Assembly (NCBI GenBank): GCA_964491395.1
Contig: CAZBGI010000003.1
Coordinates: 39,971 to 103,970, forward strand
Reading direction: 5' to 3'
DNA from: an uncultured Bacteroidales bacterium
GTDB taxonomy: Bacteria > Bacteroidota > Bacteroidia > Bacteroidales > UBA7960
DNA: 64,000 bases
In this document: piece by piece, positions 38,963 through 56,400 of the stretch
Numbering within the stretch: position 1 is the first letter of the stretch
Layout: every line of letters begins with the position of its first letter
Position numbers and translations under genes: made by a program
The notes under the pieces: generated by a model
The model's input: the letters and a program-made list of their open reading frames with translations, nothing else
What the model was told of the DNA's origin: nothing
Databases searched by the model: none

Positions 38963-39859
38963 TCAAAAGATAAAGAATAACGAAACACCAGCTACGCTTA
39001 TTGCCGCACCTGCAATTTCTTTCCAGCTTACAGATTGTTTAAAAAATATCATGGTGGGAGGAATGATAAGTATTGGAGTGATGGCCATAATGGTTGCAGC
39101 AATGCCTGTATTGGTGTTCTGGGCTGCCAGCAGTGAGAGAGAAACGCCAATGAAAGGGCCAAAGGTTGCCCCCAGCAACATCAAAAACATGGGTTTGGGC
39201 TGTTTTACAGCATAGAAAACAGCTCGCCACCGACGGAAAAAACTTACCAGGATACCAAACCCGAAAATACCTGCAATCACTCTGATTTGGGTAGCGGCAA
39301 ACGGGTCATAATCGCCCATGCCGTATTTGCTTAATGCATAACCCGTGGCTTGACCGGCGGCCCCAAGGAAGGCAAAGAACAGCCCTTTGACCGGATATTT
39401 TATCCGTGAACTCCCAGGCTTGTGCTTTTGGAAGATTACCAGAGCGATACCTGACATCGTCATAAGCATTCCTGCTATGTTTATATAGGTCAATTGCTCT
39501 CCCATAAGCAGCCACCCCTGAATAGCCGTTATAGGGGGTACAAGCGTCATAATAAGCATGGAAAGTCTTGAACCTATTAGGGTGAAAGCCTCAAAAAGAA
39601 ATAGGTCTCCGATCACAAAGCCTACCAGTCCTGACAGAATCAGCCAGAACCAGGAGTAACTTGATGCATCCAGGGGTAAAAACAAACCCCGGTTAAACCA
39701 GGAAAATAACCCCAGTAATACAAAAGCCATTATCAGGCGTATAATGTTAACAGCTACGCTTCCAACTTTCCGACTCGCTGTTTCAAAAGCAAGAGCAGTA
39801 ATAGTCCAGCAAAAAGCAGTGGCCAGGGCGGCAAGTTCCCCAATTCTTGATTCTAACAT
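38963..39859 (-). CDS. DMT superfamily (EamA) transporter
   Basis: 298 aa with about ten TM helices in two EamA-like halves. Confidence 0.8.
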   Translation of the reverse strand: MLESRIGELAALATAFCWTITALAFETASRKVGSVAVNIIRLIMAFVLLGLFSWFNRGLFLPLDASSYSWFWLILSGLVGFVIGDLFLFEAFTLIGSRLSMLIMTLVPPITAIQGWLLMGEQLTYINIAGMLMTMSGIALVIFQKHKPGSSRIKYPVKGLFFAFLGAAGQATGYALSKYGMGDYDPFAATQIRVIAGIFGFGILVSFFRRWRAVFYAVKQPKPMFLMLLGATFGPFIGVSLSLLAAQNTNTGIAATIMAITPILIIPPTMIFFKQSVSWKEIAGAAISVAGVSLFFIF

Positions 39860-40318
39860 AAGTATAAAATTTTGACGCGCAAAGGTAAGCTTTTAGCGCA
39901 ATCTCACGGGGAAAAATATCTTAACGCCTGGAAGTAATTTACATTTATGTTTAGTAGGTCTATGATTCATTGATTATTTACCACATCCATCCACGGGGTG
40001 TGGAACGAATTCCTCACTAATGTTTGGGCAAATGCAAATGAACGTTTTTATTGCTTAAAGAATGTGCTTACCTGAAATATAAATAAATGGAGGATCCCCC
40101 AAAATAAACCACTGATACTGCTTTGATTGGAAAAAGAGAATACACTTTTGTACCGGGAAGAAGTTCAGTGTACAGGCAGTTTTTTCTTCAGAAGAAAAGA
40201 AGAATAATCCAATGGCACGATATTGTATAATTATGAGCATACCGGACAGAAATATAAAACAGCGGTAATAAAAGTAGACAAAAGAGGTATTTTTAACAGA
40301 AAAGAAAACAACCAAAGG

Positions 40319-41179
40319 ATGAGAACGATAATTTTAAGTGACATTACTGAAGAAACCCCGAGTATAATTCCGTATGGCCTTAATGTGGCTAAATATGCAG
40401 AAACAAGGGTAGAAATCCTTCAATATTCAGATCCTAAGCTGGTTCAGGGAACTTATAGCCCGATTTCTGATTCACAAAGCATAACCCCAGGAGAAAAATT
40501 ATCATACGAACAAATATTGCATCGTGAAACCGAAATTGCCAAAGAAAAACTGGACCGCTTACTAAGCAGGGAAGCCTCCCGATTGAACTATCCCTTAAGA
40601 ATAAATACCATCGCTGAGATTACCGATCCTGAAAAAGCTATTGCTGATAAACTTGATGAGTTTGAAAATGTGATGGTGATAACTTCCACCAATCCTTCTC
40701 ATTCGATGGCCAGCGGACTTGATGATGTATTAACTGTACTGCAGAAACTAAATACCAGGATATTGATCATCCCCGCAGGGAAAAAATTTATAAAACCAGC
40801 CAAATGTTGCCTGGTAACAGATTTATCTAAAGAGGCAAGCCAAAACCTTGAAAACCTGTTTTCATGGATAAATCCCCTGGCTGAGAGAATCTATACATCG
40901 GCTGTGATTCATAATGAATCCGGTTCTAACAGCAGCCAGCAAATTGAGCAATGGCAACAAGCCCTAAAGGCTTATTCCCAATTCCTTGCATCAGATTCCA
41001 CTGAAGTTGTTCGGATTGACGAACCGGATGTTGCGTTTGAAAACATTTGCAGACATAAAAGACCCGATATGGTTGTGTACCCCAAAAATGGTAAATCCTA
41101 TTTTTCTCGTTTGTTGTTTTCAGAAGGATATCTCAGGAACTTTTCTGAAATGCTTAACATTCCGGTATTATTGTATTAA
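40319..41179 (+). CDS. tandem universal-stress-protein-like protein (degenerate)
   Basis: ATG at 40319 (MRTIILSD...); the track's extension to 40223 starts at a TTG. Two approximately 140-aa halves each begin with a beta-strand (ILSD / CLVTDLS) and end like USP (ILIIPAG / NIPVLLY). Confidence 0.5.
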   Translation: MRTIILSDITEETPSIIPYGLNVAKYAETRVEILQYSDPKLVQGTYSPISDSQSITPGEKLSYEQILHRETEIAKEKLDRLLSREASRLNYPLRINTIAEITDPEKAIADKLDEFENVMVITSTNPSHSMASGLDDVLTVLQKLNTRILIIPAGKKFIKPAKCCLVTDLSKEASQNLENLFSWINPLAERIYTSAVIHNESGSNSSQQIEQWQQALKAYSQFLASDSTEVVRIDEPDVAFENICRHKRPDMVVYPKNGKSYFSRLLFSEGYLRNFSEMLNIPVLLY

Positions 41180-41233
41180 AAAATTCCCTGCTGACAATGC
41201 AGCAAATTAACAGCTGCCCCCTGAAGGTTGAAT

Positions 41234-41266
41234 ACTGTTGTAGAAATTAATCTACACCACCTGTTG
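41234..41266 (+). repeat. ACTGTTG-N19-CCTGTTG direct repeat (26-bp period)
   Basis: CTGTTG at 41235 and 41261, and again at 41365 (104 = 4 x 26 bp further on). All lie in the spacer upstream of the eRF1-like gene. Confidence 0.5.
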
Positions 41267-41322
41267 GCCCGCTGTATAGCCTGATTCATTGGTTTTTGTA
41301 ACTGCATAATATACCCTGAAAA

Positions 41323-41338
41323 CGGGTTGATTTTTGCC
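41323..41338 (+). promoter_or_regulatory. candidate sigma-54 -24/-12 promoter upstream of the eRF1-like gene
   Basis: CGGGTTGATTTTTGCC: GG (41324-25) and TTGC (41334-37) sit at the spacing of TGGCACG-N4-TTGCW. The -24 half matches only at GG..G. It is about 80 nt from ATG 41418. Confidence 0.3.
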
Positions 41339-41417
41339 CTGATGATTTGCTATAAGTGTTTTATCTGTTGGGTTTTAAACCTACAATCGAGTATTAATTC
41401 ATAAAAATATTATTAAG

Positions 41418-42578
41418 ATGCGTAATTTTTCAGAACATACCTTTAAAGAATTGGCGCAGGTAAGAGCGCCCCATTGTATCTCCATTTTTATACCTACCCA
41501 CCGTGCAGGAAAGGAGGTAAACGAAAAATTAGATAGGATTAATTTTAAGAATCAAGTGCAAAAGGTTGCTGCTGAATTACAATCCTGGCAATTGGACAAT
41601 AAGGAAATAGCGCATTTACTGGAACCTTTAAATGCATTGATAAACGATACGGACTTTTGGAACAATCAGTCTGATGGCCTGGTAGCCTTCAGAAATAGGG
41701 AGCAATTTGAGTATTTTTCATTACCCGTCCATTTTCAGGAGTTTGTATTTGTTTCTGACCATTATTACTTAAAACCCCTGGTGCCCTATTTAAACGATGA
41801 TGGAAAGTATTACCTGCTGGCCCTTACCTTGTCAGGTGTAAAGTTTTATGAGGGTTTTCCTCATCATATCAATGAAGTCGTATTGGATGATTTGCTACCT
41901 GAGAAGCTTCAGGACGTGGTAGGTTATGACTACAAAGACAAGAACCTGCAGATTCGTTCGGGCCAAACCTCTGCCAATGAGGGAGAAGGAATGTATCATG
42001 GTCATGGTAAAGGAAGTGAAGAAGAAAAAACAGAGATTCTTAAGTTTTTCAGGGCCATAAATGACGGATTGATGCAGTTTATTAAGAATCGCAAGCGTCC
42101 TCTTGTATTGGCAGCAGTTGATTACCTGGTTCCTCTATATAAGGAAGTAAATGATTACCAGAATCTGCATGACCATTTCATTGCAGGAAATCCCGAGCAT
42201 GAAGACCCGGTTTTGTTGCATGAGAAAGCCAGGGATTTGCTGGGAGATTATTTTGATAAAGACAGAAAGCAGGCATTATCGGCCTTTGAACAGGCATTGT
42301 CTAATGGAAGAGCCTCTTTTAAAGAAGAGGAGGTGATTGCCGCAGCCTATAATAAGCGTGTGGATACATTGTTTATTAGAAATAATGAAGAGCTGTGGGG
42401 AATTTTTGACGTAGAGAAAAATGCCGTCATTCCCCGGGAGGTTCAACCCGAATTCAAAACCTGCCTGTTGAATTTTGCGGCCATACATACAATTTTAAAC
42501 AATGGAAAAGTCTATTTGCTGGAGGCCGATCAAATGCCTGAACCCAATTCACGCACCAATGCCATTTTCAGATATTGA
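41418..42578 (+). CDS. eRF1/Pelota-like protein (bacterial archaeo-eukaryotic release-factor-like, baeRF-type), GGQ-less
   Basis: 386 aa with no signal or TM segment. N-terminal CISIFIPTHRAG. The central HGHGKGSEEEKTEILKFFRAI aligns by eye with eRF1 HGRGGQSALRFARL. The C-terminal third (VDTLFI...) fits an eRF1 domain-3-like block. Confidence 0.5.
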   Translation: MRNFSEHTFKELAQVRAPHCISIFIPTHRAGKEVNEKLDRINFKNQVQKVAAELQSWQLDNKEIAHLLEPLNALINDTDFWNNQSDGLVAFRNREQFEYFSLPVHFQEFVFVSDHYYLKPLVPYLNDDGKYYLLALTLSGVKFYEGFPHHINEVVLDDLLPEKLQDVVGYDYKDKNLQIRSGQTSANEGEGMYHGHGKGSEEEKTEILKFFRAINDGLMQFIKNRKRPLVLAAVDYLVPLYKEVNDYQNLHDHFIAGNPEHEDPVLLHEKARDLLGDYFDKDRKQALSAFEQALSNGRASFKEEEVIAAAYNKRVDTLFIRNNEELWGIFDVEKNAVIPREVQPEFKTCLLNFAAIHTILNNGKVYLLEADQMPEPNSRTNAIFRY

Positions 42579-42586
42579 TTGCCATG

Positions 42587-42619
42587 ACTGTTGAACGAAA
42601 TACCTGAACGAAACTGTTG
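42587..42619 (+). repeat. ACTGTTG-N19-ACTGTTG direct repeat (26-bp period) enclosing TGAACGAAA x2
   Basis: ACTGTTGAACGAAA-TACC-TGAACGAAACTGTTG. CTGTTG at 42588 and 42614; TGAACGAAA at 42592 and 42605. Confidence 0.55.
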
Positions 42620-42656
42620 TGGTAAGTAACAGGAATTCTTCAGTAGTGGTTGAGAC

Positions 42657-42672
42657 TGGCACGACTCCAGCA
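42657..42672 (+). promoter_or_regulatory. candidate sigma-54 -24/-12 promoter upstream of the small membrane protein
   Basis: TGGCACGACTCCAGCA: a perfect TGGCACG heptamer, with GC of the -12 element at the exact consensus spacing (42670-71). CA replaces TT before it. It lies 75-90 nt upstream of ATG 42746. Confidence 0.4.
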
Positions 42673-42745
42673 TTGATTGATTTCTTGATTATTTCATCCC
42701 TCTTTCAAATTGACAGAAATATTTATCAACCCAAAAAATCAAGTC

Positions 42746-43138
42746 ATGATCTTATTATATCAGATTTTTTTCGCTATATTACTATCTTTATTGGTAGGGA
42801 GTTTTTTTTATTATGTTTTTAAGTATACCGGCCCGTGGGGAAGTTACTGGACTTTTGTTGCCACATTGTTCCTGGCTGGTATGGTAGCCGCAGTCTGGAT
42901 TGAACCTTTGGGCCCTATGATTTACAATTTCGCATGGGCTCCCATTCTGATAGTAATTTTGATTTTTGCCTTGTTTTTGGCTGCTGCTTCGCCTACACGG
43001 TATCGAACCCGAAATCCGGCAAGGAAGAATATGCCTGACCCGGCGCAACAAAATATCCCAGCATTGGCTGTTTCTACTGTATTCTGGGTTTTTATGACCG
43101 CTTTATTAATCACTTTTCTGATTGGTGTTTTCAGATAG
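42746..43138 (+). CDS. small integral membrane protein (about 4 TM), unknown family
   Basis: ATG at 42746 (MILLYQIFFAILL...); the track's start at 42710 is a TTG. Four hydrophobic helices, with a basic loop (RYRTRNPARKN) between the third and fourth. Confidence 0.5.
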   Translation: MILLYQIFFAILLSLLVGSFFYYVFKYTGPWGSYWTFVATLFLAGMVAAVWIEPLGPMIYNFAWAPILIVILIFALFLAAASPTRYRTRNPARKNMPDPAQQNIPALAVSTVFWVFMTALLITFLIGVFR

Positions 43139-43239
43139 CAGGTGAGTAACGCAGCAAAAACCAATGCGTATTCTACTCCCAAAGTGAACTGTCTATAACC
43201 TATCACAGGCTGTTTTGCTCCTGGGCCATGCAGTCCTTT

Positions 43240-44577
43240 TCAGGTATCCATGTCCAGTTCATTGAGTTTATTGTACAAAGTTTTTCTGTCTATTCTCAAT
43301 ATCCTGGCTGCTTCCGATTTGTTTTGCCGTGCTTGCTGCAATGCATTTTCAATAATTTTTCTTTCGGCTTGCCGGGCGGCAATTTTAAGGCTCAGTTCGC
43401 TGGAAGCATCATCAATGAATGATATTTCGGGTGCACTTTTTTGTCGTATCTCTTCAGGGAGGCAGTTGGGGGTTATCTCATGGTCCCGGGCAACAAGAGT
43501 GCTGCGTTTTATTACGTTACGCATCTCACGCAAGTTTCCGTACCATTGGTAAGCATAAAAAGCACTTTCTACTTCCGGCGAGAATTGTTGTACATCTTTT
43601 TGGAGTTCTTTGTTGGCTTGCTGCAAAAAATGGTATGCGAAAAGCATAATGTCCTGGCCTCTTTCGCGCAAAGGAGGAATCTCCAGTTTAAATTCATTGA
43701 TTCTGTGGTAAAGGTCCTCTCTGAATGTACCTTCACGAGCCTGATTGGTTAAATTGCTGTTGGTTGCAGAAATGATGCGTACATCAATATTTATTGTCCG
43801 CGTATCGCCCACACGGGTAATAACTTTCTGTTGAATGGCCCTGAGTAATTTAACTTGTGTCTCATAGGATAGGTTGCCTATTTCGTCCATAAATATAGTT
43901 CCTCCGTTGGCTTGTTCAAAATATCCTTTTTTGTCGCCCACAGCCCCGGTGAAAGCACCTTTTACATGTCCGAACAATTCACTTGCTGCCAGCTCTTTGG
44001 GAATAGCCCCACAATCAATGGCTACAAATTTTTTGGATTTCCGCTCGCTATGCTGATGAATCAGGCGTGCAATGTACTCTTTACCTGAACCGGTTTCTCC
44101 CTGTATGAGTACCGCCATGTTGGTAGGAGCTACCAGCTTTGACTGTTCAATAACATTCTGCATGGCAGTATGCTGCCCCGTAATAAATTCTTGAACATCT
44201 GGATCTTCTCCCGGCTTTTTCTCTATAGCATTTTTTACAATGCTTTTGATATTGTCAGGATGGATAGGCTTGGTTATGTAATCGTATGCACCTGCTTTAA
44301 TACTCTCGACGGCTACCTTAATTTCGGCGTATGCCGTCATCATAACTACTGCTGTCTGGGGCGAAAGCTGATGGATTTTTCTTAGCAAATCCATCCCATC
44401 CATATCTGGCAACCGGATATCGCACAGCACAACATCAAATTCTTCCTTTTTAAGTAGCAACAAAGCAGGTTTGCCTTTATTGGCGGTTTGTGTATTGTAT
44501 CCTTCTTTCTTGAAAAAATTATCCAGCAAACTGGTAATGTAAATATCGTCGTCAATGATCAAAATTTTCTTGCCCAT
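43240..44577 (-). CDS. sigma-54-dependent response regulator (NtrC family enhancer-binding protein)
   Basis: 445 aa with receiver (VLCDIRLPDMDG), an AAA+ domain carrying Walker A GETGSGKE and the sigma-54 contact loop GAFTGA, and a C-terminal Fis-type HTH (EAARILRIDRKTLYNKL). Confidence 0.9.
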   Translation of the reverse strand: MGKKILIIDDDIYITSLLDNFFKKEGYNTQTANKGKPALLLLKKEEFDVVLCDIRLPDMDGMDLLRKIHQLSPQTAVVMMTAYAEIKVAVESIKAGAYDYITKPIHPDNIKSIVKNAIEKKPGEDPDVQEFITGQHTAMQNVIEQSKLVAPTNMAVLIQGETGSGKEYIARLIHQHSERKSKKFVAIDCGAIPKELAASELFGHVKGAFTGAVGDKKGYFEQANGGTIFMDEIGNLSYETQVKLLRAIQQKVITRVGDTRTINIDVRIISATNSNLTNQAREGTFREDLYHRINEFKLEIPPLRERGQDIMLFAYHFLQQANKELQKDVQQFSPEVESAFYAYQWYGNLREMRNVIKRSTLVARDHEITPNCLPEEIRQKSAPEISFIDDASSELSLKIAARQAERKIIENALQQARQNKSEAARILRIDRKTLYNKLNELDMDT

Positions 44578-44725
44578 AGTTCCTGTTTTGTTTTTACGAA
44601 TAATTCCAAATAATTCTGAATAATTTGTTTGAATCTTTCCTTTTTAGACATGTATTATGAAGTAGATCCCCATTCGATTGCTAAATTATATGATTTTTTT
44701 ATCTAAATTCACTCATCTTTAATAA

Positions 44726-47020
44726 TTATAAATCCTTAAGAGCTGTCCGTATAGCCAGAAGGCTTTTATCAATCTCCTCAAGTGCATTATTGATAAGTTC
44801 AGCATCAGGAGCAAAGGATTCTTTTCTGAGGTATTTTTTGTCAATTTTTTTCAGGAGTTTCGTGGCTTTGGCTACTCCCAGCTGTTCCATCGATGGATGA
44901 AGCCTGTGGGCTGCTTCTGCAATACTGCCATAGTCTTCATTTAAGAGCCCTTCCTTTATTTTTTCCTGCATTTGCTGTCCGTTTTCAATGAAGGAATTTA
45001 ACATCAACATCATAAACTCTGTATCTCCGCGGGTTATTTGCCTGAGTTGTGATAAATCATAGGAGCTCATTTCTTTCCCGGATAGTTCTTGTTGCCCGTT
45101 TTTTGCAGGTACATCCTCTTGTAAATCCAGTCCGGAGGTATAAGCAAAAATATGCTTTATCAATGCTTCTTCTTTGTAAGGTTTTAGTATTACCGAATCC
45201 ATGCCGGCTTTAAGATACTCCCTTATTTGTTTTCTTACAGTATTGGCAGTCATGGCAATTACCCTGCTTATGGGTTTATGTGGATTTTTTTTCTCCTTGT
45301 TCCGTATAGAATTTAATACTTCCATGCCATTCATTTCGGGCATGTTGATGTCGAGAAAAATAACCTGATATTTTCCGGGTCGGAATTTTTTTAGCGCTTC
45401 GGCTCCTGAGGCTGCAAAATCTGATTTGATATTGTGCTTTTTTAAAATAATTGAGCCTAGTGTTCTGTTAAGCGGATCATCGTCAACGAAGAGAATTTTA
45501 CCTGCTTTTTTATTCCTGGATGACAGGATAGGTTTGCTTCTTTTGGGAAGGGTTGGATAATTTTTTTCAAATGAAAGGGTGAAGAAAAATTTAGATCCTT
45601 TGCCAGGTGTGCTCTTCACCTGCAACTTACTGTCCATTGCCTCCAGGAGTTCTTTGCTGATGGCAAGTCCCAGGCCACAGCCGGTAAAGCTCCTGTCGAT
45701 CCGGTTGTCTACCTGGTGAAAAGGTTGAAAAATCCGGGTGATCTCCTCTTCTGATATACCAATGCCTGTATCCGAAACTTCAAAGCAGATATCCTGGGTC
45801 GATTGAGTTTGTTTTACAGGAAAACAACGAATGCTTACATTGCCTTTTCGGGTAAATTTTATGGCATTGCCGCCAAGATTGATAAGTATCTGTCGCAATT
45901 TGGGCGCATCGCCCGAGAATGTTCTTTCGTGTAAAGTATCTTCTGCATGAATATAGAAATCAAGCCCCTTTTCTTTATGTTTATGTCTAAGTACCTGGCT
46001 TACAGAATCAAAAACCTCTTGCAAATTAAAAGGGTTGTGTTCTATTTCAATTTTTTCGGCTTCTATCTTAGACAACACAAGGATATCATCAATAATGGAT
46101 AACAAATGATGAGATGCATTGTCAATAATGGTAAGATAATCAGATTGTTTTTTCGTAAGTCGTGTCTGATGGAGTTGGTCAGAGAAACCAATTACGGCAT
46201 TAAGGGGAGTGCGAATTTCATGCGACATCTTGGCTACAAACCGGTCTTTGGCATCACTGGCATCTTCCGCTTTTTCTTTGGATTGCCTGAGCTGCTCCTG
46301 CACCCGTTTTGCATCTGTAATATTTTGTAAAATAACCACGCATTTATGTGTCTTATCCTTTTCGTTCAAGGGAAACATGCGGATAGAAAAGTGATGATTT
46401 TCAGAATGGAATTCTGTACTGACAGGAGTTTCTTCAAATACAATTTTAGCCAGGGATAAAATCATATCTTTTTGTTTGGCCGGAAAATATTCAGTTAGCA
46501 GGGGTGAGGTTACAGAATCTTTAACCCATCCTTGCTTGTGAGATTCACTACCCATTCTGCAATGCACTTGTAGATTTTTATCCACAAGAAACATTTCCAG
46601 GCCGGGCAGGTTTTTGGCCAAAATAGAAAAGTTGCCGGGGGTTAATTGCTCATGGCCCATGTTGCTTGGGAAGGAATCGGAAACGATAGCAGATTGAATA
46701 TAATAAAATGTCTCTTGGGAGGAATCGGGATGGATTTTCCCAAAATTTGAATCAAACGTAATGGCATGGCCTGAAGCATGAATATGATAGATTCTCTTAA
46801 TAATCGGTTGGGGGTTATTGGATTTTAACTCATTTACGATCAAGTTAATATCGTCTTGTTCAATGTTAGAAGTAATAGAATAAATGTCCTTGTTTGCAGG
46901 TAAGGTTTTGGTTTTATAACCCAGCGCCTGCTTTGCAGAGGAATTCATCCACGCAATTTCCCACTTTTCATTGTAAAGAATAACAGGATTGGGAAGCCAT
47001 TCAAGGTTGGTATTATTCAT
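44726..47020 (-). CDS. hybrid sensor histidine kinase (PAS - HisKA - HATPase - receiver - HPt)
   Basis: 764 aa, cytoplasmic. H-box MSHEIRTPLN, HATPase (DTGIGIS, GCGLGLAI), receiver FLDINMPEMNG and an HPt-like AAHRLHPSMEQLG. Confidence 0.9.
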   Translation of the reverse strand: MNNTNLEWLPNPVILYNEKWEIAWMNSSAKQALGYKTKTLPANKDIYSITSNIEQDDINLIVNELKSNNPQPIIKRIYHIHASGHAITFDSNFGKIHPDSSQETFYYIQSAIVSDSFPSNMGHEQLTPGNFSILAKNLPGLEMFLVDKNLQVHCRMGSESHKQGWVKDSVTSPLLTEYFPAKQKDMILSLAKIVFEETPVSTEFHSENHHFSIRMFPLNEKDKTHKCVVILQNITDAKRVQEQLRQSKEKAEDASDAKDRFVAKMSHEIRTPLNAVIGFSDQLHQTRLTKKQSDYLTIIDNASHHLLSIIDDILVLSKIEAEKIEIEHNPFNLQEVFDSVSQVLRHKHKEKGLDFYIHAEDTLHERTFSGDAPKLRQILINLGGNAIKFTRKGNVSIRCFPVKQTQSTQDICFEVSDTGIGISEEEITRIFQPFHQVDNRIDRSFTGCGLGLAISKELLEAMDSKLQVKSTPGKGSKFFFTLSFEKNYPTLPKRSKPILSSRNKKAGKILFVDDDPLNRTLGSIILKKHNIKSDFAASGAEALKKFRPGKYQVIFLDINMPEMNGMEVLNSIRNKEKKNPHKPISRVIAMTANTVRKQIREYLKAGMDSVILKPYKEEALIKHIFAYTSGLDLQEDVPAKNGQQELSGKEMSSYDLSQLRQITRGDTEFMMLMLNSFIENGQQMQEKIKEGLLNEDYGSIAEAAHRLHPSMEQLGVAKATKLLKKIDKKYLRKESFAPDAELINNALEEIDKSLLAIRTALKDL

Positions 47021-47410
47021 GCAATAGAATTTATTAGTATAATTATTTAAAGTAAAAAAATTTACTAACTGTTGTTTGTCGAAAAAATGTGTTGAAATCC
47101 TTCCACATATTTTTCGTATATGTCATTTAAAGCCTTTTGATAAGTGCTAACAATCAGTTTTGTACAGCAAATTTAATTGTTTAGTGAAAAATGGTATGAA
47201 AATCGAAGCTCAAATATTCAAACACATTTAAACACATTAACCTCGTAATTTTTAATTGTTAAATAAATTGAGCGAAGAAAAAACAACATGAATGACAATG
47301 ATTCTATCTTGCACTGAATTACGGCTTTTATACTGATCAAAAAGCCTTTATAAAGAAACGCAAAATGTATTTATTATTATGAGGTGAAAATTAAGCAAAA
47401 TTCTCCGTAT

Positions 47411-48265
47411 ATGCAAATGAAAAGAATGTTAGTTTTATCCGAGCTGAACCAGGTTTCTGAAATTTCGCTTGAGTTTGCTGTTGATCTTGCTGCACATCTG
47501 CGCATAAAGGAGGTTGTGGTACTTAATCTGCTGCTTTCAGCTAACCAACAGGCTCGTGAAATTAGCAATGTTCTGAATCTTGCCATTCCTCCTTACCTGC
47601 AAGAGAAAATAAATATTGATGTTAAGGAAAAACACACAACACTGGTGAAGAAACAAGCCCAAGAGATTGCCCATGAGAATGTGGAAATTTTACCAAGGGT
47701 GGAATACAAAAATGATAATCATTGCATCAATCATTACATGCGTAAATATGAAGCGGGTTTACTCATTTGTGGTAGTCAGGAAAAACCTGCATTTCTGGAA
47801 ATATCCTTTGGGTCGGCGGCAAAAGAAATGTCTGGAAAGATTCATTATCCAATGATAATCCTTACCGATGAACCCGCGAAATCGGAGATTAAATCTATCG
47901 CATTGGCCATTGACTGGAATGACAAGAAACAAGAGGGTATTGATGAAGTCATTGCATTTTCCCGTAAACTCAATGCCTATTTACAGTTGATTCATGTGAT
48001 GGAAACTCCTGCTGACCGTCATCAAGCTCTGGATGCGATGCAAAAACTCGCAAAAAATAAAAATCTCCGTAATTATTCGATCAATTTGCTCGACAATCAA
48101 AATCTTCAGGATGGTTTGGAAAGTTTCGCCCGTAAAACTGGTTCGGATATGATTGCTTTATTAAACCCGGGGAACGGAAAGCTGCACAAAATGATTTTTG
48201 GGGAAGAAATATCACCTTCTGATAGTGGCACCAGGCTTCCAATTTTTATCTGTAAAAGTTGCTGA
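47411..48265 (+). CDS. tandem universal-stress-protein-like protein (degenerate)
   Basis: ATG at 47411 or 47417 (MQMKRMLVLSE...); the track's start at 47384 is a GTG. Two USP-like halves (MLVLSEL... and IALAIDW...), each ending in a strand-rich tail (PMIILT / PIFICK). Confidence 0.5.
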   Translation: MQMKRMLVLSELNQVSEISLEFAVDLAAHLRIKEVVVLNLLLSANQQAREISNVLNLAIPPYLQEKINIDVKEKHTTLVKKQAQEIAHENVEILPRVEYKNDNHCINHYMRKYEAGLLICGSQEKPAFLEISFGSAAKEMSGKIHYPMIILTDEPAKSEIKSIALAIDWNDKKQEGIDEVIAFSRKLNAYLQLIHVMETPADRHQALDAMQKLAKNKNLRNYSINLLDNQNLQDGLESFARKTGSDMIALLNPGNGKLHKMIFGEEISPSDSGTRLPIFICKSC

Positions 48266-48549
48266 GAAATTTTCATGGCTTACATTTCAGCATAAAAGCT
48301 TGCGGGTAAAGTTAATTTATTGCTCAAATACTTCTATATTTGACCCTTGAATCGAATCCTTTTCATGGGAATTCATCTCCATGTCTCTCCGACAGACAGG
48401 AATTTCTTTTTAGGTAATTATTCTATTTTCGGAAATGATTGATTTTCTGTACAATGTTTACGTTTACCAGCCGATAAACCAATAACGATCCTTCGCAGGA
48501 TTTTAATAAACTGATGGCCTTGGCCAGGGTTAAACACAATTTGAAACAC

Positions 48550-51500
48550 ATGAAAAAACTTACCTTTTTTGTCCTGCTGTTTTGGGGGGGAATTCAACTT
48601 TTAATTGCTCAGCTGGTAATTGTTCCAACATCCAGCTTCCGGGAAACAGAAAGTCTTTTTCGAAATCCGGATTTTACTGTTCATTTTTACCGGGATGAGT
48701 TTGTCATTGCAACAGCTAAGGGAGATTTGCCCAAACAAAACTATGTTGTTCTGGATGAGAATCCCTGGGAGAACGATGTGAGCTACTATATTGTTTATGT
48801 TGACGGCAATGTGGACAAAGCAGCATGGAGGAGCCAAAATGAAAAACAGGCTGAGGTTCTTTACGATGGCGAATGGTTTATGATAGTAAGTTCTTGTGAA
48901 ACCCTCCATGGTCCGTTGCAGCCTGCCAAAAATGACGGTATGGTGAAAGTTTTTGAAAGGGGTGCAGCCTTGCCAAAAAATAGGATAAATACTCCCAATA
49001 AAAACCTTGAACCTGATGCATGGGTGGAGGATTTGCTGGATGAAATTGAAGGCGATTCTATAACAAGCTGGGTTCAGCATCTTGAGAACTACGGCACCCG
49101 CGATGCATATTCACCTGAAAGTGTACAGGCACAACAATGGATAGCCGAGAAGTTTCTCTCCTGGGGCCTTGATGTGGAAATCATGGATTTTGACATGTCA
49201 GGGGGGCCTGCCAGTGACAATATTATAGCTACGCTGACAGGGACAAAATACCCCGATGAATATGTGGTGCTGGGCGGCCATTCTGATTCTTATTCCAGTT
49301 CAGCGATGGCCCCCGGAGCTGATGATAATGCCTCGGGAACTGCCGGTGTTATGGAAATTGCGCGCATTCTCAGCCAGTATGAATTTGACAGGAGCATTGT
49401 TTTTTGTGCTTTTTCGGGCGAAGAATATGGGCTGCATGGTAGTGCAGCTTATGCCAGCAGAAGTGCACAGCAGGGTATGGAAATTCTGGGATATTTCAAT
49501 ATGGATATGATTGGATATCTGGAACCGGGCAACACCACCATTATGACTTCCTTGATTTATCCTCAGTCTGCCAAAGAACTTGCCGATTTTTATACCGATG
49601 TGGCAGCAGTTTACCTTCCCGATTTTATGATTACTACATCTACGATGATCGGGGGCGACAGTGATCATACCTCTTTTAACAACAATGGCTATATGGGTAT
49701 ATTTCCTTTCGAAGATAGTGAAAATTACAGCCCTTATATCCACACCGCCAATGATTTGGTTGGTCCCAGTTACAATAATCAGGAGCAAGCCGTTGTTTTT
49801 TCAAAAGCTACCATGGCCTCGGTTGTAACGCTGTCCGACCTTTTAACTCCGCCCCGCAATCTGTTGGCCATTCCCGGTGATGGTATGGTGGAATTGCACT
49901 GGGACGAAATGTACGATGTGGATTATTTTAATATATACCGGGATGGAATTTTCCTGAGCTCTTCTGCTAACAGTATGTTTACAGACACAGAAGTGGAAAA
50001 TGGTGTGCAGTATGAATACTACGTTACAGCCGTTTATTCCGATAGTGAAGAAGAATCGGCACCATCCAACAGGGTGTGGGTTACACCTATGCCCCCCATA
50101 TCATTTCCTCTTTTCATTGATTTTGAAAACGGTTTTCCTTACTGGGAGTTAAGTCCCCAGTGGGGACTTACTTCCAATGAATCTTTTTCCCCTTCTTATT
50201 CGCTTTCTGAAAGTCCCGACGGTGCCTATGAAAATGACAGAGAAGATTATGCCACGCTTTTTCCCGTCAATCTTGAGGGATATACAGACGCGACACTGTC
50301 TTTTTATACCCGGTATGACATTGAAAACAACTATGATTTTATGTATCTGCAGATTTCTTCGGACGGAAATAACTGGAATACACTTGATACCTATTCAGGC
50401 ACCCAAAGTCAATGGACTGAAAAAGTATATTCTTTGAATGATTATCTGGACGAACCCTATGTTGCTATCCGTTTTTATTTCTCCAGTGATTATACGGTGA
50501 CCAAAGATGGAATGTATATTGACGATTTTTCTCTGGTAACAGAAGGTGGTTATGAAACACAAACGCTTGAGCTCCCCTCCGGCTGGAGTGGTGTGTCGAG
50601 CTATTTAGTTCCCGCCCAGGACCAAATGGCAGATTTGTTACAACCTCTGACGGGTGAAATGGAACTAATTCAGGATATGACCTACACATGGTGGCCTTCA
50701 GAAAATGTGAACACCCTTACCACATGGGACAGTCAATCGGGTTATAAAATCAAAGTTCATGACAATACTTCTTTGGAAATACAGGGAGATTGGCCTGAAA
50801 ACAACACTATTTCAATCGATGAAGGATGGAATCTGATTCCTGTTGCGAGTGAGTGCCCGGTAGATATCTCCGTGTTATTGGATGATTCAGAGGTAATAAT
50901 GGTTAAGGAAGTTGGGGGAGAAGGGGTGTATTGGCCATCGCAGAATGTCTTTTCTCTGAACCAGTTATTGCCAGGTAAAGCTTATATGTTGAAAGCGTCT
51001 GAAGATTCAGAAATTACATTTCCTGAATGTGAAATGAATCTTTTGACAAACCTGCATCAGCCCCAACAGGGGCCCTGGGAAAGGGTTTCTCCAACAGCTA
51101 GCTCTCATGTTATTGCTTTACCTTACTTTCCGGAAAATAGCTTCCAGGAAGGTGATTTTGTGGGGGTTTTTACTTCTGATGGTTTATGTGCCGGATATAC
51201 ACAGATTGCTGAACCTGCAGCAAATCAGGCTTTAATGGTTTATGCCGATGATATCACCACTCCTGAAATTGATGGTTTCTCCGAAGGTGAATCCATGAAC
51301 TTCAGGCTTTTTTCGGTAGAAGAACAAAAAGAATACGAACTTGTGGCTGATTTTAACAATGGCTTTCCCCAGGAGGACCAATTCCAAAGTGAAGGTATTT
51401 CAGGGTTGCTGTCTCTTGAATTGGCTACTTCTGTTTTTCACTTTGCTGAAAACACTTTCCTGCTTTATCCTAATCCTGCAGAGGAATTGTTGAAAATTGA

Positions 51501-51678
51501 GACTGGAAAAACATCACAATGGACGTTGGATATATACAGCATGGATGGACAACATCTTTTCAGCAAAGTTATGACGGGTGATGCAGAAATCGATTTAACT
51601 GCTTTTTCAGCAGGAGTTTACTTCTTCAAAACCGAAGGATTGGATAGAATTGAAGTTCATAAAGTAGTCATCCAATAA
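48550..51678 (+). CDS. M28-family zinc aminopeptidase with FN3-like and extra beta domains and a T9SS C-terminal sorting domain
   Basis: Signal peptide MKKLTFFVLLFWGGIQLLIAQ. M28 metal ligand blocks GGHSDSY, GADDNASG and GEEYGLHGS. The C-terminal approximately 80 aa (LYPNPAEELLKIE...GVYFFKTEG...) form a Por/T9SS CTD. Confidence 0.85.
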   Translation: MKKLTFFVLLFWGGIQLLIAQLVIVPTSSFRETESLFRNPDFTVHFYRDEFVIATAKGDLPKQNYVVLDENPWENDVSYYIVYVDGNVDKAAWRSQNEKQAEVLYDGEWFMIVSSCETLHGPLQPAKNDGMVKVFERGAALPKNRINTPNKNLEPDAWVEDLLDEIEGDSITSWVQHLENYGTRDAYSPESVQAQQWIAEKFLSWGLDVEIMDFDMSGGPASDNIIATLTGTKYPDEYVVLGGHSDSYSSSAMAPGADDNASGTAGVMEIARILSQYEFDRSIVFCAFSGEEYGLHGSAAYASRSAQQGMEILGYFNMDMIGYLEPGNTTIMTSLIYPQSAKELADFYTDVAAVYLPDFMITTSTMIGGDSDHTSFNNNGYMGIFPFEDSENYSPYIHTANDLVGPSYNNQEQAVVFSKATMASVVTLSDLLTPPRNLLAIPGDGMVELHWDEMYDVDYFNIYRDGIFLSSSANSMFTDTEVENGVQYEYYVTAVYSDSEEESAPSNRVWVTPMPPISFPLFIDFENGFPYWELSPQWGLTSNESFSPSYSLSESPDGAYENDREDYATLFPVNLEGYTDATLSFYTRYDIENNYDFMYLQISSDGNNWNTLDTYSGTQSQWTEKVYSLNDYLDEPYVAIRFYFSSDYTVTKDGMYIDDFSLVTEGGYETQTLELPSGWSGVSSYLVPAQDQMADLLQPLTGEMELIQDMTYTWWPSENVNTLTTWDSQSGYKIKVHDNTSLEIQGDWPENNTISIDEGWNLIPVASECPVDISVLLDDSEVIMVKEVGGEGVYWPSQNVFSLNQLLPGKAYMLKASEDSEITFPECEMNLLTNLHQPQQGPWERVSPTASSHVIALPYFPENSFQEGDFVGVFTSDGLCAGYTQIAEPAANQALMVYADDITTPEIDGFSEGESMNFRLFSVEEQKEYELVADFNNGFPQEDQFQSEGISGLLSLELATSVFHFAENTFLLYPNPAEELLKIETGKTSQWTLDIYSMDGQHLFSKVMTGDAEIDLTAFSAGVYFFKTEGLDRIEVHKVVIQ

Positions 51679-53424: not shown

Positions 53425-56400
53425 TTGAAAAGACTTTTATCCATATTATCTTTGCTTGTTTTTCTGGGGTGCAATCCTGACAAGCAACCCGCGAAATCTT
53501 CATATTCCTCTGTTCCTGAAAAAGAAATCATCCGGGGCAACAAAATTTTATTGCAAAACCAATCATTTCCTGATACTTTTCCCAAACCCTCTTTCAAAGT
53601 AAAAAAAGCGGCCACAGCCCAAATTATCCCTTTTCGTGATAAGCAACCCTTGCTCATTGACCCTCTTGTTTTGCCATTGAAATCCGATCCTGTTGTTATA
53701 AGGGTAGGCGAAAATAATTATGCAGATCCGATGAAGTTAACGGTTGTACCTGACACCATCCGTACCCGGTTGCCAAAAATCATACAAGCCAAGGATCCTT
53801 ATATGATGGCTCATAATCCTTTCAGTTTTTCTTTCTATTCGCGCTCTCAGGGGTTGCCCAATGATGATATCAGTTCAATAGTGACAGATAATCGGGGATT
53901 TTTGTGGATTAGCACCTATGGTGCGGGGCTGGTAAGGTTCGATGGAAAATACTTTGCTCACTATACCTCCCAAAGCGGTTTTTCTGACAATTTTTTGCTT
54001 CATCTGACCTCTGATAGTCAGGATCGGTTAATTTTTGGGATGCGAACAGGAGGACTGGCTATTTTTGACGGGGAGCAGTACCTGGTTTTTGATAAAACCA
54101 ATGGATTTCCCAACAACAGAGTAGAAAACATATTTGAAGACAGCAAGGGGAACTTATGGATTGGTACTTTTGGTGCAGGTGTTTTAAAATATGATGGGAA
54201 AGAATTTGTACAATATGATAGTTCCTGCGGCTTACCGGGGAATGTGGTTTATGCTATAACTGAGGACAATGCAGGAAATATATGGCTGGGAACAAGGAGT
54301 ACGGGTCTTTCCAGATTCAACGGGAAAGATTTCACAAACTATTCCACCCTGCAGGGCCTCTCCAGTGATTTTGTCAGATTCCTGGAATTTGATCACGATG
54401 GAAAACTTTGGATAGGAACAGAGGGAGGCGGAATCTCGGTTTTAGACGGAGATTCATTGATTTACTACAATAAAGCCAATGGTTTTCCTGATAACGAGAT
54501 TTCTGCAATGCATATGGCAAGCGATGGTCAGATCTGGCTGGGAACCCGGAAAAATGGATTGTTACAATTTGATGGACATAGCTTTAAGCAGTTTACCGAA
54601 AATGATGGATTGGTAAATAATAATATAACAACCATTCATGAGGATTTAACCCATAAAATATGGGTGGGTACTTATGGAGGGGGAGTAGGATATTACAATG
54701 GCCATATTTTCAGACACTATGCCAAAGAAGAAGGAGCTCCCGAATCTTTTATAAGGGCTCTTGTGGAGGATCGTAATGAGAATAAATGGTTGGGAATGAA
54801 CAGTGAAGGGTTGCTGATGTTGCCCAAAGATGCTGATTCTCTGCAATGGTTTACCCAGGACCAAGGCCTTGAAGATAACAGAATCAGAAGTCTTTATGAA
54901 GATAAAAGCGGAAATATCTGGATAGGTTTTTTGTTTGAAGGTGTTTCCGTTTTTGATGGAGATAATTTCTTGTCATTTGAAGATGACAATCTGCTGTCTG
55001 ACATTTCAGTTGTTTCAGTTCTTGAGCAAAATAACGGTACAATCTGGATTGGCAGCTATGGGGATGGTTTGTTCAGACTGGAAGAAGATATTGTTATCCA
55101 ATATACCACAGAAAACGGGCTTACTGACAATTATATCCGGAAAATACTGGAAGACGAAAAAGGCAATTTATGGATAGCCACGCGCGATGGTGGTGTTAAT
55201 TATTTCGATGGAAGAAGTTTTACGCACTATACTACCGATGTAGGTTTGCCAACCAATGATATCTTTGATATATTCCTTGATCGGATGGGCGTTCTTTGGA
55301 TTGGGACTAATGGCTCGGGCTTGCTCATGCTCGATGATGATATGCTTACCATTTTCAAACAGGAGCATGGAATAGGCAGTGATTTTGTGTATTCTATACT
55401 GCAAGATCAACAGGGTAATATGTGGTTTGGTACTCGCTGGGGAATCAGTCTGTTTCTGGGAAGAAGTTTTTTGATTGTGGATAAGGAAAGGAATCAACAA
55501 ATCTCCAATGCGCATGAAAGAGGCATTTTTTTTAAAACTTTTACCCGCGATAATGGCTTCATGGGAGTAGGGGTAAATTCAAAGGCCATGATCCAAACCA
55601 CCGATGACAATATTTGGATCGGAGCCAATGATTTGCTAACTAAATTTGATCCCGATAACATCGTCCTTGATTCCCGGACTCCTTTTATCTATTTGAGTTG
55701 GATGGGTCTTTTTAATGAGCAAATACCCTGGGCTGAGTTGGTGCAGAACCAGGATTCTGCATTTGTTCTTCCCAGTGGAGTAGAAATTGACAATTACTCG
55801 TTTGATAGGGTAAACCGATGGTTTGGTATTCCGGAAAATTTAACACTTGCACACGATAATAATTATGTGGTTTTTAGTTTCGCGGGTGTTTCTTCTGGTA
55901 TTACGGGTTTGCTTCGCTATCAGCACATGCTGGAAGGGATGGAGGGAAACTGGAGTCCTCTTTCTGAAAACACTGAAGCACACTATGGCAACCTGCAGCC
56001 CGGAAAATACAATTTTAGGCTGCGGGCAATGAATAAGGAAGGGTATTTTAGTGATGAACTGCAATTTGGTTTTGAAATTGCTCCCCCATGGTGGTTAACC
56101 TGGTGGGCTTATTTATTGTATGCCCTGATCTTTCTTGGTTTGGCAGGAGCGAGTTACTTATATCTGAAAAAACTTAAAATTATTCGCGAGCGTAAAAAAC
56201 TGGAGGAGATGGAACTGCAGCAAAAAGTTCAGATAGCTCAAAAATCAGTAGAATTCAAACAGAACTTCCTGGCCAATATGAGCCATGAAATACGGACTCC
56301 ATTAACTGGTGTGTTGGGAATGGCGGATTTACTTCTCAAGACACCCCTGAATGAAAAGCAGCTTGACTATTTGAGAACCCTGGTTCTTTCCGGGGAGAAC

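Follow-up and report, generated by a model that had tools for sequence, protein, structure and literature searches.

A baeRF7 protein encoded by an uncultured Bacteroidales bacterium is a probable Balon-type ribosome hibernation factor

Balon (AOC03_06830) of Psychrobacter urativorans (Protein Data Bank (PDB) entries 8RD8, 8RDV and 8RDW; Helena-Bueno et al., Nature 2024, PMC10901736) and the mycobacterial proteins Rv2629 and Msmeg1130 have been solved on 70S ribosomes, bind there to the A site and are described as hibernation factors (PMC10901736). Balon occupies this site under stress, together with EF-Tu(GDP) and irrespective of mRNA, inhibits translation and touches the decoding center with the HP motif of its N-domain loop (PMC10901736). 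According to the supplement of that study, all three lack NIKS and possess an extended N-domain loop on the opposite face, lack GGQ and carry a β-hairpin in the C domain. Balon's lasso loop is disordered without P-site tRNA and otherwise wraps A2602, Balon genes sit in a stress-gene context, and iterative HMMER searches recovered Balon homologues in 23 of 27 phyla (PMC10901736). Here, we analyzed a stretch of 64,000 nucleotides from an uncultured Bacteroidales bacterium (assembly GCA_964491395.1, contig CAZBGI010000003.1, positions 39,971 to 103,970 of the forward strand; hereafter the window, numbered from its first letter), in which a gene at 41418..42578 (+ strand) encodes a Balon-like, three-domain protein of 386 amino acids (aa). 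The protein belongs to the baeRF proteins, the bacterial representatives of the archaeo-eukaryotic release factor 1 (aeRF1) superfamily, and its comparison with the solved structures suggests that it probably acts as a Balon-type, non-catalytic A-site ribosome hibernation factor. An earlier note on this DNA, made from the letters alone, had held that no baeRF protein had been characterized, a statement that the 2024 ribosome structures of Balon, Rv2629 and Msmeg1130 have rendered outdated (PMC10901736).

The open reading frame (ORF) 41418..42578 (+) runs intact from ATG to stop, the opposite strand is stop-rich and holds no competing long ORF, and the guanine-plus-cytosine (GC) content at the gene (0.38-0.40) equals that of its surroundings. 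The peptide MYHGHGKGSEEEKTEILKFFRAINDGL, quoted in the earlier note, was found in the translated protein, and an identical protein flanked by the same neighbors is present on a metagenomic contig (L081; Logan, run SRR11308337). Neither a signal peptide nor a membrane segment was evident when the letters were read without a predictor, consistent with a cytoplasmic protein. A Pfam search returned five baeRF models at E≤1, led by baeRF_family7 (PF18849) with an E value of 1.3e-43 and 149.1 bits, far above the gathering cutoff of 27.2 bits, and followed by family3 (129.8 bits, E 1.7e-37) and family6 (119.5 bits). Kinship to eRF1 itself was not visible at this level, as none of the models eRF1_1, eRF1_2 and eRF1_3 was reported at E≤1; of the two groups of profiles that the earlier note had suggested for a check, only the baeRF families matched. 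The family baeRF_family7 is already catalogued in Pfam, stemming from the 2019 analysis, and is large, with 6,908 cluster representatives at E≤1e-3 (50% clustering); two homologues (P0115, P0120) are called 'baeRF7 domain-containing protein' in their source records.

Sequence searches also led directly to Balon. The best NCBIfam model was NF052287, 'AOC03_06830 family ribosome hibernation factor' (E 1.9e-42), with residues 9-386 aligned to model positions 1-361. The only sequence relative in the PDB was Balon chain B (8RD8/8RDV/8RDW), mislabeled in its deposition as 'methyl-accepting chemotaxis protein'; phmmer with the single window sequence detected 8rd8_B at E 3e-11, and a family profile built from 46 sequences reached 8rd8_B at E 1.5e-24, end to end. 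Given the phmmer value, proteins like that of the window would lie within reach of the HMMER searches that defined the spread of Balon. Rv2629 and Msmeg1130 were not detected by the family profile among PDB sequences, and their links to the window protein are structural only. Balon itself matched Pfam baeRF_family3 (105.6 bits) and, marginally, family7 (27.7 bits), so that the window protein is placed in a sister family to Balon's and not in Balon's own.

Structure prediction sharpened this ranking. An AlphaFold2 model computed on the family alignment (mean predicted local distance difference test (pLDDT) score 86, predicted template modeling score (pTM) 0.78) consists of three domains, comprising approximately residues 1-127 (N), 128-280 (middle) and 281-386 (C), with one disordered stretch at residues 172-199 (pLDDT <50) that contains a Gly-rich motif. 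When this model was searched against the PDB with Foldseek, with matches spanning about 330-450 aligned columns, ribosome-bound Balon ranked first (8rdv_B, 8rdw_B and 8rd8_B; E 5.9e-24 to 5.2e-23, template modeling (TM) score 0.71-0.78, full length), the match to 8rdv_B alone having an E value of 5.9e-24 and TM scores of 0.73/0.77. Msmeg1130 followed (8v9l_z, E 3.9e-18; 8v9j_z, E 1.7e-17; TM about 0.67-0.71), and Rv2629 (8v9k_z) matched at E 9.6e-14 with TM 0.63-0.66. The archaeal and eukaryotic release factors ranged from E 4.5e-14 (aRF1, 4af1) to about 1e-10, with eRF1 (5lzv) at 4.9e-12 and TM scores of about 0.4, and Pelota/Dom34 structures appeared at 2.8e-7 (3wxm) and weaker, with TM of about 0.25. 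The nearest characterized relatives of the window protein are therefore the Balon proteins. The intact ORF, the three-domain model, the full-length Foldseek matches and the baeRF_family7 assignment together confirm a three-domain member of the aeRF1 superfamily in a bacterium, and bear out the three-block, eRF1/Pelota-like layout that had been read from the sequence; eRF1 and Pelota were both among the structural matches, with Balon placed ahead of them.

Where aeRF1 proteins carry the catalytic loop HGRGGQS, the window protein has YHGHGKGS (residues 193-200; 41994..42017, + strand), a remnant of that loop as judged by conservation, hhalign and BLASTP. Neither GGQ nor NIKS occurs anywhere in the 386-aa sequence. 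Alignment of the family profile to human eRF1 with hhalign, using an eRF1 sequence identical to 1dt9_A, covered all three domains and set residues 194-200, HGHGKGS, over eRF1 residues 180-186, HGRGGQS. The support for this register was low (probability 9%, E 0.0036), the eRF1 template being a single sequence. The same register emerged from the relative P0372, a family-7 member with 35% identity to the window protein (BLASTP E 3e-78, Pfam family7 1e-41), whose loop VHGQGGQSADEK with an intact HGQGGQS aligned gaplessly over YHGHGKGSEEEK (HGHGKGS) of the window protein. Since the hhalign alignment, the P0372 alignment and the position of the loop in the model agree, the place of G-Q is taken by K198-G199, and the protein has lost the catalytic Gln. 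The register drawn earlier by eye and the missing Gln were thus both reproduced.

What remains of the loop is under strong constraint. Across 81 relatives with 39-100% identity, H194 and G195 are invariant (81/81), G197 is kept in 62 and the loop has a length of 12 in 61, while position 198 varies between E, K, A, D and S. In a more distant set of 150 representatives (32-44% identity; 151 rows including the window protein), H194 was found in 129, G195 in 144 and G197 in 127 rows. In broadly disseminated baeRF families, such as 1, 2 and 6, this loop has been described as poorly conserved (Burroughs and Aravind, PMC6514570). A few baeRF7 members retain GGQ within or beside the loop: P0372 has the eRF1-like pattern of VHGQGGQSADEK at residues of about 190-200, and P0375 has HGHGSGGQ. 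These two may still be able to catalyze release, or may represent steps on the way to losing it.

Three further segments stand out from the remainder of the protein. The most conserved N-domain loop is PTHRAG (residues 26-31; 41493..41510, + strand). Alignment A1 shows no variation at P26 and G31 and at least 90% conservation at T27, H28 and R29; among the 81 relatives, the counts are 80 for P26, 79 for T27, 63 for H28, 79 for R29 and 79 for G31. This loop follows strand 1, has a length similar to that of Balon's loop and aligns with Balon T23-H24-R25...H27-P28. In the C domain, which resembles Pelota and eRF1_3, a β-hairpin inserted at residues 327-339 (42396..42434, + strand; DSSP strands 327-331 and 336-339 in the model) coincides in the profile alignment with a segment of the Balon C domain and is the counterpart of Balon's EF-Tu-contacting β-loop. 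The C-terminal strand NAIFRY (residues 381-386; 42558..42575, + strand), recognized by its conservation, resembles the GGILRY strand of eRF1 on inspection of the eRF1 sequence; N381 is present in 77, A382 in 79, R385 in 80 and Y or F at position 386 in 80 of the 81 relatives, and R385 in 149 of the 151 rows of the distant set. Strong purifying selection acts on the three contact loops. Separately, the conserved segment (L/F)-K-N-Q at residues 42-46 (nucleotides (nt) 41541-41555) fell over eRF1 NIKS(R) in the hhalign alignment, at low confidence. In the window protein this segment reads NFKNQ and lies inside a long helix of the model, K44 and N45 are at least 90% conserved, and Balon also has LKNQ; (L/F)KNQ may be what is left of the motif that reads stop codons.

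By homology to Balon, Msmeg1130 and Rv2629, we propose that the protein would respond to starvation or stress by entering, without reading mRNA, the A site of 70S ribosomes that are vacant or stalled. At the decoding center, the position of Balon's HP-motif loop would be taken by the N-domain loop PTHRxG, and the (F/Y)HGxG loop of the middle domain would reach the rim of the peptidyl-transferase center (PTC), where, because the GQ of HGRGGQS has been lost, it would not hydrolyze peptidyl-tRNA. The C domain with its β-hairpin insertion would offer a surface for EF-Tu(GDP), and the resulting ribosomes would be translationally silent, protected and able to be reactivated. For the window protein, binding to the ribosome, a need for EF-Tu, the condition that induces it and the control of its gene are inferences. 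A-site activity appears general to three-domain baeRF proteins, since Balon, Rv2629 and Msmeg1130, at 12-19% identity, all bind there.

Several observations weigh against this assignment. The identity between the window protein and Balon is only 18-19%, their Pfam families differ (baeRF_family7 and baeRF_family3, respectively), and the NF052287 score of 146.1 bits stays below the NCBI equivalog cutoff of 330. At the level of motifs, the HP dipeptide of Balon's KTHREHP is not conserved and is replaced by (A/S)G, T-H-R being common to both; the bL27 trap of Balon could not be placed from the text consulted; and Balon shows an 8-residue gap at the HGHGKGS loop in the profile alignment and has no invariant HG, so that the loop contacts at the PTC may differ from those of Balon. 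At the level of the locus, searches of the six-frame translation of the 64-kb window with local profiles found no HPF, Hsp20, OsmC, YtxH, MDHAR-like, encapsulin or BON gene, and scans for sigma-54, sigma-A and Escherichia coli-type promoters yielded no promoter or inducing signal assignable to the window copy. A literature search returned no experimental study of any baeRF7 or Bacteroidota member.

We considered three other functions. In the first, which the earlier note had favored by analogy, the protein would be a non-catalytic rescue or splitting factor like Pelota/Dom34, sensing ribosomes that have stalled with their A site empty or damaged and serving recycling, not storage. Superfamily, three-domain layout and the missing Gln are common to both, and Burroughs and Aravind list the relief of stalled ribosomes as an option for baeRF proteins (PMC6514570). 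We nevertheless regard this as improbable, as the structural match to Pelota (E about 3e-7, TM about 0.25) is much weaker than that to Balon (TM 0.73-0.78) or aRF1, which also makes Balon the closer analogy. Moreover, the family context is one of storage and stress (HPF, Hsp20, trehalose) and not of RNA repair or quality control, and we know of no bacterium with ABCE1, the partner that does Pelota-linked splitting. In hibernating ribosomes, in addition, the solved bacterial relatives are found in the A site and leave peptidyl-tRNA intact (PMC10901736).

The second alternative is a specialized enzyme, either a release factor or a peptidyl-tRNA hydrolase, that uses the invariant His-Gly of (F/Y)HGxG instead of GGQ. 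It would fit the constraint on the loop, which is unusual for a Gln-less baeRF family (H194 and G195 invariant, length 12 in 61/81), and catalysis may survive somewhere in the family, since P0372 keeps a complete HGQGGQS. In the window protein, however, the positions of the second Gly and the Gln are K198 and G199, with position 198 variable in relatives, and we know of no release factor that works without GGQ backbone geometry. Together with the finding that Balon-type relatives leave the PTC inert (PMC10901736), this makes a hydrolase very unlikely. Least credible of all is a component of a conflict or defense system, in which the protein would block translation or counteract phage or toxins that target ribosomes: baeRF-1 pathways have been proposed to be conflict-shaped and laterally spread (Burroughs and Aravind, PMC6514570), but we rejected this reading as the PADLOC models gave no meaningful match for the protein or its neighbors (the sole match was a 15-bit one to Cas13a), no toxin, nuclease, integrase or mobile-element genes flank the baeRF gene in the window, its GC content equals that of the surroundings, and the neighbors across the family are physiological stress genes.

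To assess the genomic setting of the family, we selected 80 loci in reference genomes out of 509 confirmed relatives and clustered and annotated the neighboring genes. These loci belong nearly all to Bacteroidota, comprising Bacteroidales metagenome-assembled genomes (MAGs), Saprospiraceae, and Flavobacteriia such as Maribacter, Psychroflexus and Arenibacter, with a few from Ignavibacteriota. Among 141 immediate neighbors, the Pfam census counted MDHAR-like FAD oxidoreductases 11 times, M50-CBS proteases 8 times, universal stress proteins (USPs) 7 times, AI-2E transporters 6 times, HPF/RaiA (Ribosomal_S30AE) 5 times and LigD 4 times, and encapsulin, BON, trehalose phosphatase, YtxH and OsmC 3 times each. 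Within four genes on either side of baeRF7, Hsp20, P-type ATPase and PCMT genes recurred. The family-level context thus consists of stress or dormancy genes, the same kind of context as published for Balon; the linkage of baeRF families to HPF had already been noted in 2019 (PMC6514570). A USP-like gene lies at most two genes from baeRF7 in 10 of the 80 loci, and in the window. From these counts, the USP linkage is real and enriched yet amounts to a minor variant of a stress/dormancy neighborhood, not a conserved pairing; the recurrent USP plus eRF1-like module proposed earlier therefore does recur, but only as a minority arrangement (10/80 loci, 7/141 immediate neighbors).

Individual lineages showed arrangements of their own. 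Short HPF/RaiA genes (99 aa, Ribosomal_S30AE) directly adjoin baeRF7 in L031, L039, L042, L044 and L063 (position +1 or -1) and lie at -2 in L034. The carriers of HPF-adjacent baeRF7 genes are Flavobacteriia and one Ignavibacteriota MAG, and genes encoding a lipoprotein of 229 aa, Hsp20 and a P-type ATPase often come next; this set of HPF, Hsp20 and P-type ATPase resembles the mycobacterial DosR regulon (hspX, ctpF, otsB, USPs, Rv0079). In Psychroflexus (L036, L040, L043), positions -4 to -1 hold PCMT (protein repair) and then genes of about 198, 335 and 270 aa, and an AI-2E transporter gene lies 3' of baeRF7, which gives a dormancy/repair flavor unlike the Bacteroidales arrangement. The LigD primase-polymerase counted four times among the immediate neighbors is probably this 270-aa Psychroflexus gene. 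One locus, L028 (SABY01000144.1), is binned as 'Clostridia bacterium' and carries a 50%-identical baeRF7 gene preceded by the element of the Bacteroidales type; the contig probably stems from Bacteroidota and was binned wrongly.

In the window, the gene next to baeRF7 on the upstream side, separated by 238 nt, encodes a divergent tandem USP-like protein of 286 aa (40319..41179, + strand), recognized through AlphaFold and Foldseek. The Pfam Usp model scored 14.6 bits (E 0.049), below its cutoff of 24, the trimmed ORF gave no match, and a narrow profile of the subfamily found no USP in the PDB. The AlphaFold model (pLDDT 86, pTM 0.87), in turn, matched over its full length UspE (4r2j, 4.2e-9), TTHA0350 (3ab7, TM 0.64/0.74) and Rv2623 (2jax, 6.3e-5). 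By its predicted fold of two α/β Rossmann-like domains, this neighbor is a tandem USP, in agreement with its earlier identification. MJ0577-type USPs bind ATP through the motif G-2x-G-9x-G(S/T), which was not visible in either half of the subfamily alignment.

Downstream of baeRF7 lies a gene for a multi-pass membrane protein of 130 aa with the motif FFYYVFKYTGPWGS(F/Y)W (42746..43138, + strand), a conserved baeRF7 partner that matched no Pfam or NCBIfam family. It occurs in 8 loci including the window, at +1 to +3 of baeRF7 in seven of them and upstream in the eighth. In three loci a gene for an MDHAR-like FAD/NAD oxidoreductase (410 aa) is placed between the two (L003:6818-8047, L005:4217-5446, L007:7250-8479). 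As only a short intergenic gap (42579-42745) without such a gene exists in the window, this lineage either lost the MDHAR-like gene or never acquired it at this place. Convergent with the baeRF7 cluster is an NtrC-type sigma-54-dependent response regulator (43240..44577, - strand) with a REC + AAA+ + HTH_8 architecture in Pfam (Sigma54_activat 1.8e-69, Response_reg 3.7e-33, HTH_8 1.4e-10), found at the same position in L003, L005 and L007. Upstream of it lies a hybrid histidine kinase gene (44726..47020, - strand; HisKA, HATPase_c and Response_reg on the identical gene in L081), which is presumably co-transcribed with the response regulator. A second tandem USP gene (47384..48265, + strand; Pfam Usp 1.9e-10 in two stretches) is divergent from the kinase gene, and the two-component system is therefore flanked on both sides by USP-type genes.

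The window also encodes an M28 peptidase with a type IX secretion system (T9SS) C-terminal sorting domain (48514-51678), a Reg_prop/Y_Y_Y hybrid two-component sensor (53425-57372) and a CarboxypepD_reg TonB-dependent receptor (58199-60589), all typical Bacteroidota genes that support the phylum assignment of the window. An Rfam search of positions 39000-48500 (E≤0.1) returned no RNA family and no riboswitch or leader.

The promoter analysis covered elements of the -24/-12 type. The consensus TGGCAC-N5-TTGC, with at most two mismatches, matched 56 times in the window versus 53.7 expected and is thus not enriched, with no match upstream of the baeRF gene, and a scan of the 350 nt upstream of the gene that retained GG and GC left no candidate in the window and no convincing one in 28 relatives. 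In 12 related loci, the variant TTGGCAT-N5-TTTTC precedes the baeRF7 start by 43-187 nt, versus about 0.2 expected from a composition estimate; it has a -24/-12-like spacing with TC replacing GC at -12, and its flanks have diverged. All sites are on the + strand (L001:4512, L002:3146, L003:5533, L004:5904, L007:5921, L012:5897, L013:3030, L016:5944, L024:6, L027:469, L028:348 and L062:5926). L003 and L007 combine this element with the sigma-54 activator next door, and L005 has the activator and a one-mismatch element. A weight matrix made from the relatives' variant sites found nothing near the window gene above shuffle level, its best matches in the window lying elsewhere (8660, 52486) and within the shuffle range. 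With consensus scans and weight matrix both empty upstream, sigma-54 control of the window baeRF copy found no support. The earlier proposal of a regulator type different from that of Rv2629 thus stood insofar as a sigma-54 regulator is a conserved neighbor in some close relatives, but no sigma-54-type promoter was detectable ahead of the window copy. The Bacteroidetes sigma-A -7 motif TAnnTTTG was likewise absent upstream of the gene in the window and in nearly all relatives, a scan for E. coli-type promoters and terminators was uninformative, and a literature search on sigma-54 promoters in Bacteroidetes found nothing.

Related elements precede other genes. The TGGCAAGGTTTTTTC element also occurs at L009:4631(+)/3906(-), L011:2977(+)/2599(-), L012:5640(-) and L016:5684(-); the genes behind it are a ferritin-like gene followed by encapsulin (L009, L011) and, on the other strand, a YtxH-like gene (L009, L011, L016). 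Some Bacteroidales may therefore have a small regulon in which baeRF7 and these neighbors share control. In the window, TGGCACGATATTGTA (40213..40227, + strand), located about 92 nt upstream of the USP-like gene, is a candidate -24/-12-like promoter on the grounds of conservation. Its pattern, TGGCAY-N4-TTGY, has a spacing one base shorter than the sigma-54 consensus, and its counterparts TGGCACGGTATTGCA (L001:3291) and TGGCATGGTATTGTA (L002:875) lie 122-123 nt upstream of the orthologous genes, with diverged flanks. On sequence grounds, we consider TGGCAT-N5-TTTC and TGGCAY-N4-TTGY to be candidate promoters. Finally, TGGCACGACTCCAGC (42657-42671, + strand), with GG and GC at canonical sigma-54 spacing and two mismatches in TT, precedes the start codon of the membrane-protein gene by about 75 nt; this single site is weak and no more frequent than expected by chance.

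Three features go beyond the literature consulted, namely that half of the loop motif, HGxG, is invariant, that one relative still has all of HGxGGQS, and that relatives carry a sigma-54-like element. Taken together, they could be read as marks of a mechanistically distinct branch of the Balon superfamily, in which the (F/Y)HGxG half-loop of baeRF7, kept from the ancestral HGxGGQS catalytic loop, would engage the PTC or the CCA end unlike the lasso, and which would belong in Bacteroidales to a sigma-54/two-component dormancy regulon with TGGCAT-N5-TTTC; we consider this rather unlikely. On the present analysis, the window protein is instead a credible member of the known Balon kind and not a new kind of system. 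If the assignment as a Balon-type hibernation factor holds, A-site hibernation of this type extends to Bacteroidota, and a 2025 preprint names Bacteroidetes among the phyla with possibly unappreciated hibernation strategies (10.1101/2025.11.04.686544). Cultured carriers (Maribacter sp. ACAM166, Psychroflexus, Arenibacter certesii) make the family directly testable, and the HGxG half-loop together with the relative carrying HGQGGQS would form a natural series from release factor to hibernation factor. For annotation, 'hypothetical protein' could be replaced by putative Balon-like (baeRF7) ribosome hibernation factor beside a divergent tandem USP.

Compared with the systems described so far, the window protein is most like Balon. 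The two are of similar length (369 aa in Balon, 386 aa in the window protein), have three domains, lack NIKS and GGQ and carry a β-hairpin in the C domain; both place a T-H-R loop after the first strand of the N domain, the loop of the window protein that would face the PTC is predicted to be disordered in the free protein, as Balon's lasso is without P-site tRNA, and both families occur in a stress-gene context that includes HPF/RaiA, Hsp20 and OsmC. They differ in the PTC loop, which in the window protein exceeds that of Balon by 8 residues in the profile alignment and has the HG and a mostly conserved second Gly that Balon has lost, in the eRF1-like C-terminal (I/L)(F/L)RY strand that the window protein keeps, and in the host phylum, which is Bacteroidota for the window protein and Proteobacteria for Balon.

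Rv2629 (8V9K) and Msmeg1130 (8V9J, 8V9L) match the fold of the window protein over the full length (TM 0.63-0.71) at 12-15% identity, but have larger insertions in the C domain (PMC10901736). Rv2629 is controlled by DosR, whereas the window neighborhood contains a sigma-54 activator. The earlier description of Rv2629 as an eRF1-like protein of the DosR/DevR regulon was correct, but not its placement next to USP genes: the Rv2628 promoter, which depends on DevR, drives Rv2629 together with Rv2630-Rv2631, and the USP gene Rv2623 belongs to the same cluster without being adjacent (PMC3177182). The DevR/DosR regulon also holds hspX, otsB, ctpF, USPs and Rv0079 (PMC3177182), and would in this respect parallel the Hsp20, trehalose-phosphatase, P-type ATPase, USP and HPF genes found near baeRF7.

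With aRF1/eRF1 (4AF1, 1DT9), the window protein shares the three-domain architecture, a first strand in which ISIFIP lies over ISLIIP, the register of HGHGKGS with HGRGGQS, a helix behind this loop in which basic and aromatic residues are conserved, and FRY over LRY at the C terminus; unlike eRF1, it lacks GGQ and NIKS, and the TM score is about 0.4. Translation termination in bacteria uses RF1/RF2, and the window protein is therefore not a primary release factor. In baeRF proteins, the β-hairpin replaces the insertion of the aRF1/eRF1 C domains (PMC6514570). Pelota/Dom34, finally, belongs to the same superfamily, is likewise without the catalytic Gln and is an A-site binder delivered with an EF-Tu-like GTPase. 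Its loop A, however, probes the empty mRNA channel and it splits ribosomes with ABCE1, whereas Balon-type proteins avoid the mRNA channel and stabilize ribosomes (PMC10901736).

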